A stretch of DNA of 64,000 bases from Candidatus Hermodarchaeota archaeon (lineage in GTDB: Archaea > Asgardarchaeota > Lokiarchaeia > Sigyniarchaeales > SOKP01), in NCBI GenBank assembly GCA_048885925.1, contig JBHLLG010000013.1, forward strand, positions 1 to 64,000, in the 5' to 3' direction. Positions 8,914 to 41,923 of the stretch are shown here, in pieces (position 1 is the stretch's first letter; every line of letters begins with the position of its first letter). The translations under genes and the position numbers were made by a program. The notes under the pieces are model-generated. The model saw only the letters and a program-made list of their open reading frames with translations, ran no database searches and was not told the origin of the DNA.

Positions 8914-9810
8914 TTATTCTTCAGGTGAATCATCAATAGGAACTTTTAATGTTCCTATAATTTTTTTTCTTAGACGAGTATAATAACTCTTCTTAAATCG
9001 TATGAATTTTGTTTGAGAGTTTGCTTTACGAATCCTTACTATTGTGTTAGGTGGTATCTTTTTGAACGTTCTTTGTCCATCTATAATTATTCTAGCATTT
9101 AATCGAGGTCTTAAGAGTTGAATTTCAATCTCAGAGTCCAATGAAACTATTATAGGTTTTATACCTGATCCCGCAAAACTATTCAAGGGGGTTAATTGCA
9201 TGATTTCTAAATTAGGATCGACAATTGACCCTCCTGCGCTTAAATTATAAGCTGTAGACCCAGTTGATGTTGAAATAATTACTCCATCCAAATAGCTTCT
9301 ATTTAAGAAAACTCCATCAATTTTAATGGATACCTGTAAAACTTTTGAACTTTTAGAGGAAACAATCAAGACTTCATTTAATGCATTATTCAGTTTGATT
9401 TCATCTGAATTTTTAATTATATACGCAGTTATTTTAGAACTTGCTTGTGTTTCAAATTCATTATTTAGAGCCCTTGTTAAATCCTGAAAAATATTCCGTT
9501 TATTAGATTCATCTAAAAATCCTACAGAACCCACATTAACCCCTAAAATCGGTGGAGGATTTTGTTGAGATAATCCTCCTGCAACCCTTAATATTGAACC
9601 ATCTCCACCAATAACTACGATAAACTTGATATTATCAGCTGTCATTTCGTTTAAATCCATTCCATTATGCGGAAAAATTTTTGGCGCTATACGTGTTTCT
9701 AAGTATACAACCTCTCCCTTTTGAACTAAAAACTCAAAAATTCTCTTTGCCAATTTGATTGCTTTTTCTGAATCCAATCTACAAGCTAAAGCAATGGGCT
9801 TTTTATTCAT
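8914..9810 (-). CDS. nadK: NAD+ kinase
   Basis: GGDGS, GVNVGSVGFL, ALNE, DGVIISTSTGSTAYNLSAGG. Confidence 0.95.
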   Translation of the reverse strand: MNKKPIALACRLDSEKAIKLAKRIFEFLVQKGEVVYLETRIAPKIFPHNGMDLNEMTADNIKFIVVIGGDGSILRVAGGLSQQNPPPILGVNVGSVGFLDESNKRNIFQDLTRALNNEFETQASSKITAYIIKNSDEIKLNNALNEVLIVSSKSSKVLQVSIKIDGVFLNRSYLDGVIISTSTGSTAYNLSAGGSIVDPNLEIMQLTPLNSFAGSGIKPIIVSLDSEIEIQLLRPRLNARIIIDGQRTFKKIPPNTIVRIRKANSQTKFIRFKKSYYTRLRKKIIGTLKVPIDDSPEE

Positions 9811-9895: not shown

Positions 9896-10353
9896 TTAAG
9901 TTGAAAATATTCTGTTTATTAACATCCTTCCAGCTATTTGCCAAAATTCTACCTGAGCTGTTGAAAGAAGTTTCGGATTTGCTTGAAGTTCTTTCAATTT
10001 ATTTTTTAATTCCTCATCTTGAGGCCATTTTACATCAATTGACTCATAAGATTCTAAATCCATAATATTAACTGAATTTTCTTCTATGAAATTAATCTGT
10101 GCATTACCCTTGGTAATTTCTGGTATTTCAACCATCGAACCGCTTGGGAAGGTTAAAGATCTTTTGTTATTATCAAACATTCCAACACATACAACACGGA
10201 CTTTTGCACTATATGAGAAATTCATATAAAATTTGCATGTCCGTGTTTGCCAGACTTAGATCTCTCTGTTGACTTTATTATACAAGGCTCGCTTTCAACC
10301 ATTATATATTGTCCAGTTTTTAATTTCTGTATCTCTGTTCTTCTAATAGACAA
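9896..10353 (-). CDS. eif5a: Translation factor aIF5A/eIF5A, two exons (10353-10232 and 10202-9896), 142 aa after removing a 29-nt insert
   Basis: TTG start at 10353 behind AAGGTG. Exon 1 reads MSIRRTEIQKLKTGQYIMVESEPCIIKSTERSKSGKHGHA, exon 2 reads KVRVVCVGMFDNNKR...IMDLESYE. Joined length 429 nt restores the hypusine motif SKxGKHGHAK. Confidence 0.93.
10203..10231 (-). other. Putative 29-nt bulge-helix-bulge-type mRNA intron in aIF5A
   Basis: Minus strand: AACACGGAC A TGCA AA|TTTTATATGAATTTCTCATATAGTGCAAA|A GTCCGTGTT. 9-bp exon-exon helix, 4-bp TGCA/TGCA central helix, 7-bp intron hairpin. The insert shifts the frame and contains TGA. Confidence 0.8.
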
Positions 10354-10489
10354 TTTCTTTTACACCTTAGTTTGTATATTATTATCCAAATATTTTTTAT
10401 TTTTTAAGATATATTATATTTATTAAAAAAAAAATATTAGTGTTTAAGAACTAATTCAATTACCTATAAAAGATTAAAGCTTGGAAATA

Positions 10490-11863
10490 ATGGTTTTAGA
10501 GAAATTAGGTAGATCATTAGACACGGCAATTAGAAAAATTAGACGACTACCTTTAGTGGATAAAGATGCTATTAATGCTCTTATTCAAGAATTACAACGT
10601 GCCTTGCTTCAAGCAGATGTACGCGTGGAACTTGTATTTGAAATGACGGAAAATATTAGAAAAGAAGCAATGAACACAGAACTTCAGAAAGCAAGAAGGA
10701 AAGATTTTGTAATTAAATTAGTTCATGATGAATTAATAAAACTTTTAGGAGGAAAGCCTTCCCCTATAAGAATAAAACCAGGAAAAAAAAATGTAATACT
10801 TCTTGTAGGAATTCAAGGTTCTGGAAAAACTACTACTGTTGCTAAATTAGCAAAAAATTATAAAAACAAAGGTTACAAAGTTGCAACTCTAACGACTGAT
10901 ACATGGCGTCCAGGAGCTTATGAACAATTAGCACAATTATCAGAACAGGTTGGTGTTCAATATTATGGAAATCCAAACGAAAAAAATGCTGTAAAAATTG
11001 CAATTCAAGAAACGAAAAAAGCATTAAATGATGGAAATGATATCATTATAGCGGATACCGCAGGTAGACATAAAGAAGAAAAAGAATTGATGAAAGAAAT
11101 GGCAATTCTTGAACAGAAACTAAAACCAAATGAAATAATTCTGGTAATTGATGGAACTTTAGGTCAACAAGCATTTAATCAAGCTGAAGCTTTTGCTCAG
11201 ACAACTAATTTAGGTTCAATTATAGTTACTAAATTAGATGGAACTGCTAAAGGTGGTGGTGCTTTATCAGCCTGTAGTGCTGCAAACGTGGGTATTAGAT
11301 TCATTGGTACTGGGGAGAAAATAGATAATTTTGAAGAATTCGAACCATCAAAATTTGTTGGAACATTGCTTGGTATTCCAGATATAGAATCATTAGTTCA
11401 AAAAGTACAAGAAGCTGAAGTAGATTTTGAACCAGAAATGATAAAAAGAATGGTTCATGGAAAATTTACATTAGAGGATCTTTACCTACAATTGAAGAGT
11501 ATAAAAAAAGTAGGTAAATTTAGACAGATTTTATCAATGATGGGCGGTGGAAATATCCCAGATGCTTTAAAGGAAGATGCTGAAGCAAATTTAGCAAAAT
11601 GGGAAGTTGTTCTCAATTCTATGACCCAAGAAGAAAAAGAAACTCCAAAAATCATTAAAAAAACTCGAAAAAGACGAATTGCAATAGGAAGTGGGACTGA
11701 TTACTCAGTAATAAACAAAATGTTAGATCAATTTCAGCAAATGAAAAAATTCATGAAGAGATTTCTTCAAATGCAGAAAAAAGGTAAAGGAATTCCAGGA
11801 ATGCCTGGATTCCCTGGTGGAAAGGCAGCAGCTGATTTTATGAAAAAGTTAGGCAAGTTTTAA
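10490..11863 (+). CDS. srp54: Signal recognition particle protein SRP54
   Basis: ALLQADV, GIQGSGKTT, DTWRPGA, DTAGRH, TKLDGTAKGGG, Met-rich M domain. Confidence 0.97.
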   Translation: MVLEKLGRSLDTAIRKIRRLPLVDKDAINALIQELQRALLQADVRVELVFEMTENIRKEAMNTELQKARRKDFVIKLVHDELIKLLGGKPSPIRIKPGKKNVILLVGIQGSGKTTTVAKLAKNYKNKGYKVATLTTDTWRPGAYEQLAQLSEQVGVQYYGNPNEKNAVKIAIQETKKALNDGNDIIIADTAGRHKEEKELMKEMAILEQKLKPNEIILVIDGTLGQQAFNQAEAFAQTTNLGSIIVTKLDGTAKGGGALSACSAANVGIRFIGTGEKIDNFEEFEPSKFVGTLLGIPDIESLVQKVQEAEVDFEPEMIKRMVHGKFTLEDLYLQLKSIKKVGKFRQILSMMGGGNIPDALKEDAEANLAKWEVVLNSMTQEEKETPKIIKKTRKRRIAIGSGTDYSVINKMLDQFQQMKKFMKRFLQMQKKGKGIPGMPGFPGGKAAADFMKKLGKF

Positions 11864-14766: not shown

Positions 14767-16284
14767 ATGCTCAATTCTGAAAATAAAATTTTAGTAATTG
14801 ATATATCGTCAAATAAAATCAAAGTTGGTCTAGTATCAGAAGATTTAAAATTAGGTTCCACCATAAATCAAAATTTAACTATTATAAATGAAGATGTCGA
14901 TGGGTTTGCTAAAAGATTCGATATGAATGATATGTGGAACAAATTAAAAAAGAGTATTTATGAATTATTGAATGAACAATATAAAAGTAAGAGAATAAAT
15001 ATTATTGGAATTTCTTCTTGTGCTCAACGAATGGCAGTAGTATTTCTTGATAATAAAGGAGATACAATATATGGTGGTCCAAATATTGATGTTCGAGGAA
15101 TTGATAGTGCTTATTTGATTGAAGATCAGTTTTCAGAAGAAGAATTATTTCAAATTACGGGTCATAGTCCTTCTATTTTATTTTGTCTCGCACGCTTATT
15201 ATGGTTTAAAGAAGAACAGGAGCACTATTATAATAAAATTGGTAAGGTTTTAATGCTAGACGATTGGATCATTTATAAACTAACAGGGGAATTTTGTACT
15301 GATTTATCATCTGCAGGTGAATCTCAAATGGTTGATATTGAAAAGGAAAATTGGAGTTTGGATATTATTGAAGCTTTCGATTTTAATCCTGATTTATTTC
15401 CTGAATTTATAGATTCGGGTATGATTGCAGGAGATTTATTACCTGAATTAATTAGTTACTTTAACTTTAATCAAAAATCCATTCCTGTAATAAAATCTGG
15501 AGGGGATACTCAGGCAACACTGTTAGGGATGGGGGTTATTAATGATGGTAATATTGGTATTAGCTTGGGATCTACGGCTCCTATTCATTTAGTTGTGAAT
15601 AAACCTATTTTGGATCCCAATTGTAATTTTTGGACAACATTTCATTCTATTAAAGGAAAATGGTTAATTGAAGGAAATTCTGGAAATACGGGAATTGTAT
15701 ATGATTGGTTAAAGGATTATTTTTTATTCACTGAAGGAGTTGATAAAAATGAACTTATCGAAAATTTAATACAAGAAATTAAACCTGGCTCAGATTCTAC
15801 CTTTGCTTTTTTAGGACCAGAACTTATGAATATTAAAGATCAAACTTTGCTAAAAAGAGGTGTATTCGTCTTTCCACCACCAACCCTAATAACCGAGAAA
15901 CTTCCAAAATTCGGAAATTTTCTTAGAAGTGGTATTGAAAATATCGGTTTTGGAATTAATGAAAACTTTATAGAACTTAAAAAATATACTCAATCTGAAA
16001 TTAGAACTTTTTCTGCAGGGGGAATGTCAAAATCTACCGAATTTTGTAAAATTCTAACAAACATTCTTGATCAAAAATTAATTATTCCTCAGTTTAAAGA
16101 TTCGGCTTTTCTTGGATGTGCAATGAATACTCTAATCGGATTAAATAAATATCCAAACTATAAAAAATTAATTGACGATTTAATAGAATTTGAAGAATTT
16201 TTGGTTGATAAAAAAATCTCAGATGAATACAAGAAAGTCTACAATCAATGGAAAAATCTAAAAAAGCATTTAAGTAAATTATAA
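14767..16284 (+). CDS. FGGY-family carbohydrate kinase (divergent, LsrK-like)
   Basis: CAQRMA, NIDVRG, ARLLWFK, MLDDW, GGDTQ, GST, AGGMSKS. Confidence 0.85.
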   Translation: MLNSENKILVIDISSNKIKVGLVSEDLKLGSTINQNLTIINEDVDGFAKRFDMNDMWNKLKKSIYELLNEQYKSKRINIIGISSCAQRMAVVFLDNKGDTIYGGPNIDVRGIDSAYLIEDQFSEEELFQITGHSPSILFCLARLLWFKEEQEHYYNKIGKVLMLDDWIIYKLTGEFCTDLSSAGESQMVDIEKENWSLDIIEAFDFNPDLFPEFIDSGMIAGDLLPELISYFNFNQKSIPVIKSGGDTQATLLGMGVINDGNIGISLGSTAPIHLVVNKPILDPNCNFWTTFHSIKGKWLIEGNSGNTGIVYDWLKDYFLFTEGVDKNELIENLIQEIKPGSDSTFAFLGPELMNIKDQTLLKRGVFVFPPPTLITEKLPKFGNFLRSGIENIGFGINENFIELKKYTQSEIRTFSAGGMSKSTEFCKILTNILDQKLIIPQFKDSAFLGCAMNTLIGLNKYPNYKKLIDDLIEFEEFLVDKKISDEYKKVYNQWKNLKKHLSKL

Positions 16285-41819: not shown

Positions 41820-41923
41820 GCGCGGGTGGTCTAGTGGTATGACGACACCTATTTTATTAATAACATATAAAGCGTTAAACGCTCACACCGTGTAAATCAG
41901 GGGTTCAATTCCCCTCCTGCGCA
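41820..41923 (+). tRNA. trnV: tRNA-Val(CAC) with a 32-nt non-canonical intron
   Basis: Acceptor GCGCGGG/CCTGCGC+A; D arm GTC-TAGTGGTAT-GAC; T arm AGGGG-TTCAATT-CCCCT. After removing 32 nt the anticodon arm is ACACG-CTCACAC-CGTGT (72-nt mature body, no encoded CCA). Confidence 0.88.
41847..41878 (+). other. tRNA intron at position 28/29 (could slide to 29/30 or 30/31)
   Basis: Central helix GACG/CGTT with AC|A and AA|A 3-nt segments. Cutting after the second base of each restores ACACG. Confidence 0.7.

Follow-up and report, generated by a model that had tools for sequence, protein, structure and literature searches.

The gene for the archaeal translation factor aIF5A is interrupted by 29 nucleotides (nt) in the window, a stretch of 64,000 nt from Candidatus Hermodarchaeota archaeon (contig JBHLLG010000013.1, positions 1 to 64,000), and this insert is most probably a genuine bulge-helix-bulge (BHB) intron of the aIF5A pre-mRNA, removed by the tRNA-splicing endonuclease EndA and the ligase RtcB. 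The evidence comprises the structure, the restoration of the reading frame, the reality and conservation of the insert, the single copy of the gene, purifying selection, the presence of both enzymes and sister introns in two further genes. The intron borders the hypusine loop in a translation factor that is essential and present as a single copy, and its host belongs to the archaeal group closest to the eukaryotes. On the minus strand the frame reads ...SKSGKHGHA-NFI-stop (open reading frame 10222..10353) and KVRVVCVG... continues in a different frame; an earlier note on this DNA had described this split with its offset of 29 nt from the letters alone, and open reading frames and translations bear it out. 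The gene is composed as follows:

10232..10353, minus strand: aIF5A exon 1; TTG at 10353, the start codon being uncertain; ends with the first two bases of the lysine junction codon
10203..10231, minus strand: candidate BHB intron of 29 nt, in which the remainder of the 5' bulge leads into an 8-bp hairpin (loop of 5 nt), the central helix follows with its 3' strand and two bulge bases form the end
9896..10202, minus strand: aIF5A exon 2; third base of the junction codon, then VRVVCVG..., stop codon at 9898-9896

The exon 1 piece matched the Pfam profile IF5A-like_N (PF21485) with an E-value of 1e-09, residues 7-41 falling on profile positions 7-41 of 63. The match of the exon 2 piece to the eIF-5a OB fold (PF01287) was weak (E = 2.2e-4, 21.8 bits for a curated cut-off of 24.2); this piece is 70-85% identical to aIF5A of the same genus. 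Excision of 10231..10203 according to the BHB rule yielded an open frame of 142 codons plus stop without an internal stop codon. The spliced protein aligned to intact relatives over 141 columns with no gap, and 124 of the 141 residues matched those of the closest relative, G217. Excision at the rule positions thus restores frame and conserved protein, in aIF5A as well as in a Ni-CO dehydrogenase (Ni-CODH) described below, and the restored GHAKV and normal 142-amino-acid (aa) aIF5A foreseen in the note were obtained.

In the canonical BHB motif of the tRNA-splicing literature both strands are cut two bases 3' of a central 4-bp helix. The minimum-energy structure calculated with RNAfold for 71 nt had this hBHBh' architecture at -23.8 kcal/mol, while shuffled sequences averaged -12.05 (standard deviation 2.33, z = -5.04) and none of 200 shuffles was equally stable. 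Its elements are:

10239..10247, minus strand: outer helix h, 5' strand AACACGGAC, within exon 1; nine of nine positions pair
10193..10201, minus strand: outer helix h, 3' strand GTCCGTGTT, within exon 2
10238, minus strand: unpaired A between outer and central helices
10234..10237, minus strand: central helix H, 5' strand TGCA; predicted 5' cut two bases downstream, 10232/10231
10205..10208, minus strand: central helix H, 3' strand TGCA; predicted 3' cut two bases downstream, 10203/10202
5' bulge from 10233 and 3' bulge 10204-10202, minus strand: both A-rich
10209..10229, minus strand: inner helix h', an 8-bp hairpin with arms 10229-10222 and 10216-10209, one U-G pair and the loop ATTTC at 10221-10217

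The fold offers a central helix of 4 bp with one cut site per strand after AA in two-fold pseudo-symmetry, flanked by helix h of 9 bp between the exons and helix h' of 8 bp in the intron. The outer helix, the TGCA/TGCA pairing and the A-rich bulges lie where the earlier note had placed them. The hairpin it had described does cap the insert, with 8 bp in the RNAfold structure instead of 7 bp; the extra U-G pair leaves a 5' bulge of 4 nt.

The exon sequences are tuned to this structure. In the register of the 9-bp outer helix, nine of nine positions pair in the genome under study (G000) and seven of nine in a homologous metagenomic locus (L142, see below), while the median was five of nine in 40 distinct orthologue sequences without the intron; among these 40, only that of G003 has all nine pairs. 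Between G000 and G217, the closest intron-less relative (85% protein identity), the 27 nt compared differ at five bases, all synonymously: three changes create outer-helix pairs, one turns U-G into C-G and one completes the central helix. All five G000 changes thus create or strengthen pairs of the BHB motif.

The insert is present in DNA of independent studies. A run search recorded 20 run rows in 9 studies that contain, wholly or partly, a 3-kb stretch around the locus, and contigs of four DNA runs from 4 studies were aligned, one of which may be the source of the assembly. Run X1 provided a 416-nt contig over 9938-10353 (no other letters, no gaps), X2 a 3,394-nt contig over 9700-10439 (one other letter), X3 a 171-nt contig over 10151-10321 (no other letters) and X5 a 369-nt contig over 9965-10333 (one other letter). 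The contigs of all four runs span 10196-10288 without a gap and with at most one other letter. No variant with a 29-nt deletion was listed in the contigs of X1, X2, X3 and X5, although contigs can mask rare variants. Two joints in X1 with sides of fewer than 30 letters were taken as other organisms. The genome has 3.9 Mb in 181 contigs, a completeness of 95.0% and a contamination of 4.4%, and gave a single aIF5A match. A blastn-short search with the 61-nt region retrieved, within the genome, the locus itself and short AT-rich chance matches, but no further copy of the insert, which is therefore not a member of a repeat family. The confirmation in DNA reads that the earlier note had proposed is thus available from contigs of four runs, and a second intact aIF5A, named there as a sign of decay, was not found in this 95%-complete genome.

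Related genomes were searched for interrupted aIF5A genes. GKHGHAKVR was uninterrupted in all 23 same-genus genomes of a first search. A phylum-wide search obtained a match in 374 of 399 genomes, and the best 150 matches were inspected, the 226 weaker ones lying outside the scope. All 50 same-genus matches were among the best 150, and their frames were uninterrupted and long. The shorter frames of G014 (128 aa) and G215 (139 aa) sit at contig ends. Among the matches listed, the frame was cut right at the first query residue in G000 only. Metagenomes were searched with a degenerate DNA pattern that requires the loop and the Cys-Val-Gly downstream of it to be set apart by an additional 28-58 bases. 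An earlier, less relaxed version had no match, the relaxed one yielded 22 stretches: 21 unrelated chance matches and one aIF5A, L142. The L142 contig is syntenic (SRP54, aIF5A, NAD kinase) with 76-81% nucleotide identity to the window and thus belongs to another species. It carries a homologous insert of 30 nt at the same site, 25 of the 30 aligned columns being identical to the G000 insert; with its 30 nt it keeps the exons in one frame, and a TGA lies in it.

The spliced coding sequences of G000 and L142 share 112 of 142 residues, with a proportion of synonymous differences (pS) of 0.70 and a ratio of nonsynonymous to synonymous rates (dN/dS) of 0.079. The insert evolves far slower than the synonymous sites. 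Exons and insert are thus both constrained, and the comparison indicates strong purifying selection on both exons while they carry the insert. On the structure derived from G000, L142 keeps 17 of 21 pairs, breaks four and changes one U-G into C-G; this change lies in the inner helix, where seven of eight pairs are kept. The motif of L142 is weaker, with a 3-bp central helix and mismatches in outer and inner helices.

It is highly improbable that aIF5A is a dead or dying gene, struck by a small palindromic insertion or an assembly error and folding like a BHB motif by coincidence. The intact frames of all 50 same-genus relatives would agree with such a loss, and in a draft of 181 contigs and 95% completeness a second copy could be unassembled. 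Yet the insert occurs in four runs of four studies and in a second species, the dN/dS of 0.079 holds over both exons with synonymous sites near saturation, the frame shows no other damage and the fold has a z of -5. The lack of a second genomic copy speaks against a repeat family, and two more genes are interrupted alike and restored by the same rule.

These two genes were recovered by a genome-wide scan for other split genes, which the earlier note had suggested and which found two further frame-restoring BHB mini-introns:

G000:C4:38336-38367 (locus L034, 2337-2368), plus strand: BHB-flanked insert of 32 nt in the gene of a Ni-CODH of the Prismane family, outside the window
G000:C31:18957-18988 (locus L033, 1258-1289), minus strand: insert of 32 nt in a 4Fe-4S ferredoxin-like gene, strict hBHBh' with two 3-nt bulges, outside the window

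The Ni-CODH pieces match the Pfam profile Prismane at positions 3-457 of 513 upstream (E = 2.6e-117) and at 458-512 downstream (E = 3.8e-10). The profile runs from 457 to 458, so the predicted junction is exact to the residue. Fourteen of 16 same-genus matches of Ni-CODH are uninterrupted (557-648 aa), the exceptions being G013 and G006 (a partial match), and nine CODH loci that match the motif read ...APEYMEQKA... with no insert. In the CODH of G013 (L051, G013:C46:110237-110449) a TAA lies inside the match and the open frame has 210 aa; this gene may be a pseudogene or have a different kind of interruption, and no BHB hit was listed for it when the retrieved loci were scanned.

In the 4Fe-4S gene, excision of the insert rebuilds the cluster motif CxxCxxCxxxC. 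The gene was matched in 40 of 53 genus genomes, with most frames of 184-188 aa. Four of them, G000, G206, G023 and G016, each have a 32-nt insert at the same codon. The inserts are related between G000 and G206 and between G023 and G016, but the two pairs share no recognisable sequence; read from the sequences, they use different exon-exon registers and 5' cuts one base apart. When one mismatch was allowed in the central helix, the scan retrieved G016 and G023, and their junction ...FC(V/I)|RAC... was correct. Of the differences between the inserts of G023 and G016, one mends an inner-helix mismatch and one replaces U-A by U-G. The EndA cut rule thus restores the frame in three of three G000 genes, and in G016 and G023. 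A second 4Fe-4S copy with a short frame in G004:C103 (L088) was rejected, as it is a truncated fragment with non-coding sequence upstream and no intron. Exon-exon helices also occur in intron-less relatives: besides the aIF5A of G003 (L014, 9/9 pairs), the CODH genes of G003 (L047) and G005 (L043) have the same 6-bp GCTCCA/TGGAGC. Such a helix could stem from precise intron loss, or a pre-existing hairpin could have been used as landing site.

Both the sister genes and L142 bear on programmed -1 ribosomal frameshifting at A-AAT-TTT before the hairpin, which would add about 10 residues after GHA. Slippery heptamers follow the rule X-XXY-YYZ; the G000 heptamer fits it, a hairpin follows and the exon-2 frame is open for 18 codons upstream, across the insert. 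In L142, however, the heptamer reads A-AAT-CCT and the insert of 30 nt is in frame and contains a TGA, so two homologous inserts would need two different recoding tricks; the slippery heptamer is thus confined to G000. In addition, the spacer to the hairpin has 1 nt and the 10 extra residues would stand three positions from the hypusine lysine. The exon-2 frames of the CODH and the 4Fe-4S gene close 0-2 codons upstream of the junction (open for 77 and 81 aa with queries of 75 and 81 aa), so that frameshifting cannot rescue these genes. We regard frameshifting as extremely improbable.

The enzymes required by the BHB intron are encoded in the genome: a splicing endonuclease (PF01974, 101.7 bits) and an RtcB ligase (PF01139, 569.6 bits). 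The RtcB gene lies on G000:C12. A single EndA homologue was found (G000:C22), which has 198 aa and both Pfam domains. Its best solved relatives over the full length are 3p1z_B, 3ajv_B, 2cv8_A and 2zyz_B, named tRNA-splicing endonuclease, which we take to be catalytic subunits of crenarchaeal heterotetrameric enzymes. ARAGORN made 31 tRNA calls on the genome, 19 of them with an intron; these are rough calls on a 95%-complete genome. As the tRNA genes appear heavily interrupted, EndA must be active. The tRNA annotation of this genome is clearly unreliable, and the ARAGORN result fits the available text of a preprint according to which standard tools miss many Asgard tRNA introns (10.64898/2026.10.13.758758). 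The gene cbf5, source of the classical spliced mRNA of archaea, is uninterrupted in this genome, with a frame of 342 aa.

We infer that EndA cleaves and RtcB ligates, as well as any regulatory effect, along the following lines. The transcript would fold so that exons 1 and 2 pair in the GC-rich helix of 9 bp, with the palindromic TGCA/TGCA helix between A-rich bulges and the 8-bp hairpin as body of the intron. EndA would cleave twice, in each case two bases past the 3' end of a central-helix strand, and RtcB would join the exons and probably circularise the 29-mer. Lysine codon and frame would be restored, giving the normal aIF5A of 142 aa. If splicing is obligatory, the supply of aIF5A depends on tRNA-splicing activity. 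An XBP1-like regulatory role of the intron would be pure speculation by analogy.

The scan that recovered the sister introns covered the whole 3.9-Mb genome with a relaxed BHB motif (central helix of 4 bp, bulges of 3-4 nt, at least 4 bp in the outer and at least 3 bp in the inner helix, intron of 12-200 nt) and gave 668,861 raw candidates. The aIF5A motif scored 45. Just 16 candidates had a score of at least 45, and aIF5A ranked second among those joining two open frames; by helix strength, the top three short frame-joining candidates were C31 (32 nt), aIF5A and C4 (32 nt). Most frame-joining hits are ordinary gene boundaries, and the C17 locus (AT-only, 41 nt) was dropped since it looks like one. 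At 103 short high-scoring loci, four joined frames at the true offsets, C17 being the fourth; length-changing offset pairs gave 0-3 and length-keeping pairs 3-4, largely at the same loci. Acceptance of the three introns is grounded in protein logic and in Pfam coordinates rather than in scan statistics. A comparison with paralogues found 95 of 947 short candidates with a gapped paralogous high-scoring segment pair across the junction; none passed the gap-free window test, the accepted 4Fe-4S case included, so this test was uninformative. One of the 19 tRNA introns called by ARAGORN lay within 3 nt of a scan hit: either the single-intron model of ARAGORN is wrong for heavily interrupted tRNAs, or the scan is insensitive. 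Since the scan may be insensitive, the three introns are a lower bound.

Several observations weigh against the BHB intron. As 50 of 50 same-genus matches are uninterrupted, an intron in aIF5A is rare. Joining of frames was an unspecific filter in the scan, with 15,511 candidates at the true offsets and 15,594-15,883 at wrong ones; after tightening, 9,018 remained at the true cut offsets and 8,985-9,433 at wrong ones. No run that contains the locus is recorded as RNA in the run listing, so that splicing is inferred; four RNA runs, listed by shared study only, contain next to none of the words of the locus. Between G000 and L142, two sequences, no compensatory double change was observed, and the fold was derived from the G000 sequence itself; it is thus not proven by covariation. 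Of the two outcomes that the earlier note had hoped for from an alignment, the homologous insert at the same site was found in L142, the covarying stems were not. The BHB motif is described in the accessible text of PMC5829648 as two 3-nt bulges with a 4-bp helix between them, and the aIF5A structure departs from this strict form by a 5' bulge of 4 nt and a 1x3 internal loop in place of the 3' bulge. Judged from the modelled fold, the aIF5A motif is a relaxed BHB form; the note had already pointed to the extra A opposite the 3' bulge and to the 4-nt 5' bulge, and RNAfold reproduced both. Relaxed motifs demand an endonuclease of broad specificity, either (alpha-beta)2 with the L1 loop or epsilon2. 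Searches of the genome with PF01974 and PF02778 detected no EndA beta subunit, even at E <= 10, so a broad substrate range of EndA is not established for this organism. For Asgard archaea the accessible texts give an EndA of (alpha-beta)2 type with an L1 loop, of the broad-specificity kind (PMC5829648), and two EndA paralogues in 44 of 60 genomes (10.64898/2026.10.13.758758).

The relaxed motif of aIF5A, the weaker version in L142 and the missing beta subunit would suit removal from the RNA by a machinery other than EndA, e.g., another structure-specific nuclease that acts on the paired flanks before RtcB joins the ends; a comparable process is SOS splicing, described in the available text of PMC12779559 for inverted-repeat transposons in animals. 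We consider this unlikely: in three of three genes of this genome, as well as in G016 and G023, the frame is restored by cuts exactly where the EndA rule puts them; the C31 motif, one of three, is a strict hBHBh'; and the heavily interrupted tRNA genes (19 of 31 calls) imply an active EndA.

A further point against the BHB intron is the 6-nt sequence TGCAAA, which is repeated at both ends of the insert, so that a GCA-to-GCA ribosome hop could formally give the same aIF5A product. In such programmed translational bypassing the ribosome would take off at GCA (Ala), slide over the hairpin and land at the GCA 29 nt downstream, the RNA staying uncut. The identical flanks provide matched take-off and landing codons, GCA stands at both places in L142 too and a hairpin lies within the gap. 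Bypassing is nevertheless very unlikely. The stop is four codons past the take-off codon and not adjacent to it, and a palindromic central helix with A-rich bulges generates such a repeat of itself. The 9-bp exon-exon helix with its five synonymous changes would be unexplained. At the other two inserts no pair of matching codons would bring back the conserved residues, which the BHB rule recovers exactly. Known bypass elements are those of T4 gene 60 and the byps of Magnusiomyces mitochondria. With the introns described here they share hairpin inserts of 27-55 nt in coding sequence and, in the case of aIF5A, identical end codons; bypass inserts stay in the RNA, however, while of the three inserts described here two are without matched codons and each one follows the cut rule of EndA. 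We know of no bypassing system in archaea.

The BHB intron of aIF5A has its closest counterpart in the cbf5 intron of Crenarchaeota (Desulfurococcales, Sulfolobales), likewise a short, frame-breaking, BHB-flanked insert in a protein gene. According to the accessible part of PMC2738675, the cbf5 intron is excised by the tRNA-splicing endonuclease, occurs in hosts with a hetero-oligomeric EndA of broad specificity and shows patchy gain and loss; splicing is confirmed there for cbf5 alone, introns in other genes being predicted. A 2025 paper on EndA structure cites, in its available text, just the cbf5 work for mRNA substrates (PMC12397907). The case presented here differs in its host, an Asgard archaeon and not a member of the Thermoproteota, and in its host genes, aIF5A, Ni-CODH and a 4Fe-4S protein. 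A further difference is that one genome has at least three interrupted genes and that, across species, one codon carries two structurally unrelated introns. Splicing of cbf5 has been confirmed experimentally, whereas here it is deduced from sequence and structure. The presumed mechanism is the same as for cbf5-type introns, in a new lineage and in new host genes. Several such introns in one genome, and one site apparently hit by two different introns, are the points that this comparison of sequences would add. No prior description of a BHB intron in aIF5A or in Asgard mRNA was found in the literature, subscription-only literature being outside the scope.

In eukaryotes, the mRNAs of XBP1 and HAC1 are spliced by the IRE1/RtcB route, RtcB joining the exons in animals. 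These introns resemble the aIF5A intron as small, frame-shifting, non-spliceosomal mRNA introns set by RNA structure; they differ in the endonuclease, IRE1, in two stem-loops instead of a BHB motif and in their function as a regulated stress switch. Asgard tRNA genes have BHB introns with the same presumed machinery, the same motif and repeated, often lineage-specific gains, as far as the available text of the preprint goes (10.64898/2026.10.13.758758). These introns differ in being located in tRNA genes; the term 'mRNA' occurs 0 times in the text of the preprint and 'protein-coding' is used only for neighbouring genes. The intron-rich classes it names are Jordiarchaeia and Atabeyarchaeia, which in the text available are not shown to include the genus studied here. 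The mini-introns in protein genes are probably part of a wider Asgard phenomenon.

Tentatively, and with somewhat less than even confidence, we consider that in this genus of Promethearchaeia BHB mini-introns are actively colonising protein genes by landing at existing mRNA hairpins, with the exons tuned synonymously afterwards. This view is based on a genome with at least three such introns, on one codon in the 4Fe-4S gene where different species have two structurally unrelated introns of 32 nt and on the exon helix in some intron-less relatives. If it is true, mRNA splicing by the tRNA-splicing machinery would be a routine layer of expression in close prokaryotic relatives of eukaryotes, and the amount of hypusinated aIF5A, an elongation factor, available to the cell would depend on the activity of EndA and RtcB. 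If RNA confirms the introns, such genes are systematically annotated wrongly by gene callers, as split or truncated, and intron gain in Asgard protein genes becomes directly observable, with intron-bearing and intron-less species pairs open to comparison. RtcB-dependent, XBP1-like mRNA splicing would then gain concrete archaeal substrates, testable in vitro.

The aIF5A gene is flanked by the genes of an NAD kinase (8914-9810, minus strand) and of SRP54 (10481-11863, plus strand), and the same order of the three genes is found in L142. For deoxyhypusine synthase the genome has two full-length homologues, G000:C75:3574-4416 (298 bits) and G000:C70:3633-4514 (297.6 bits), compared with the single aIF5A. 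Elsewhere in the window, Rfam identified a tRNA at 41820-41923 on the plus strand (47.7 bits), which with 104 nt is too long for an uninterrupted tRNA. The tRNA finder applied to the window reported none, and the intron option of ARAGORN proposed a tRNA-Tyr whose anticodon is odd and whose intron has 16 nt. Probably, this tRNA gene contains several introns or non-canonical ones.

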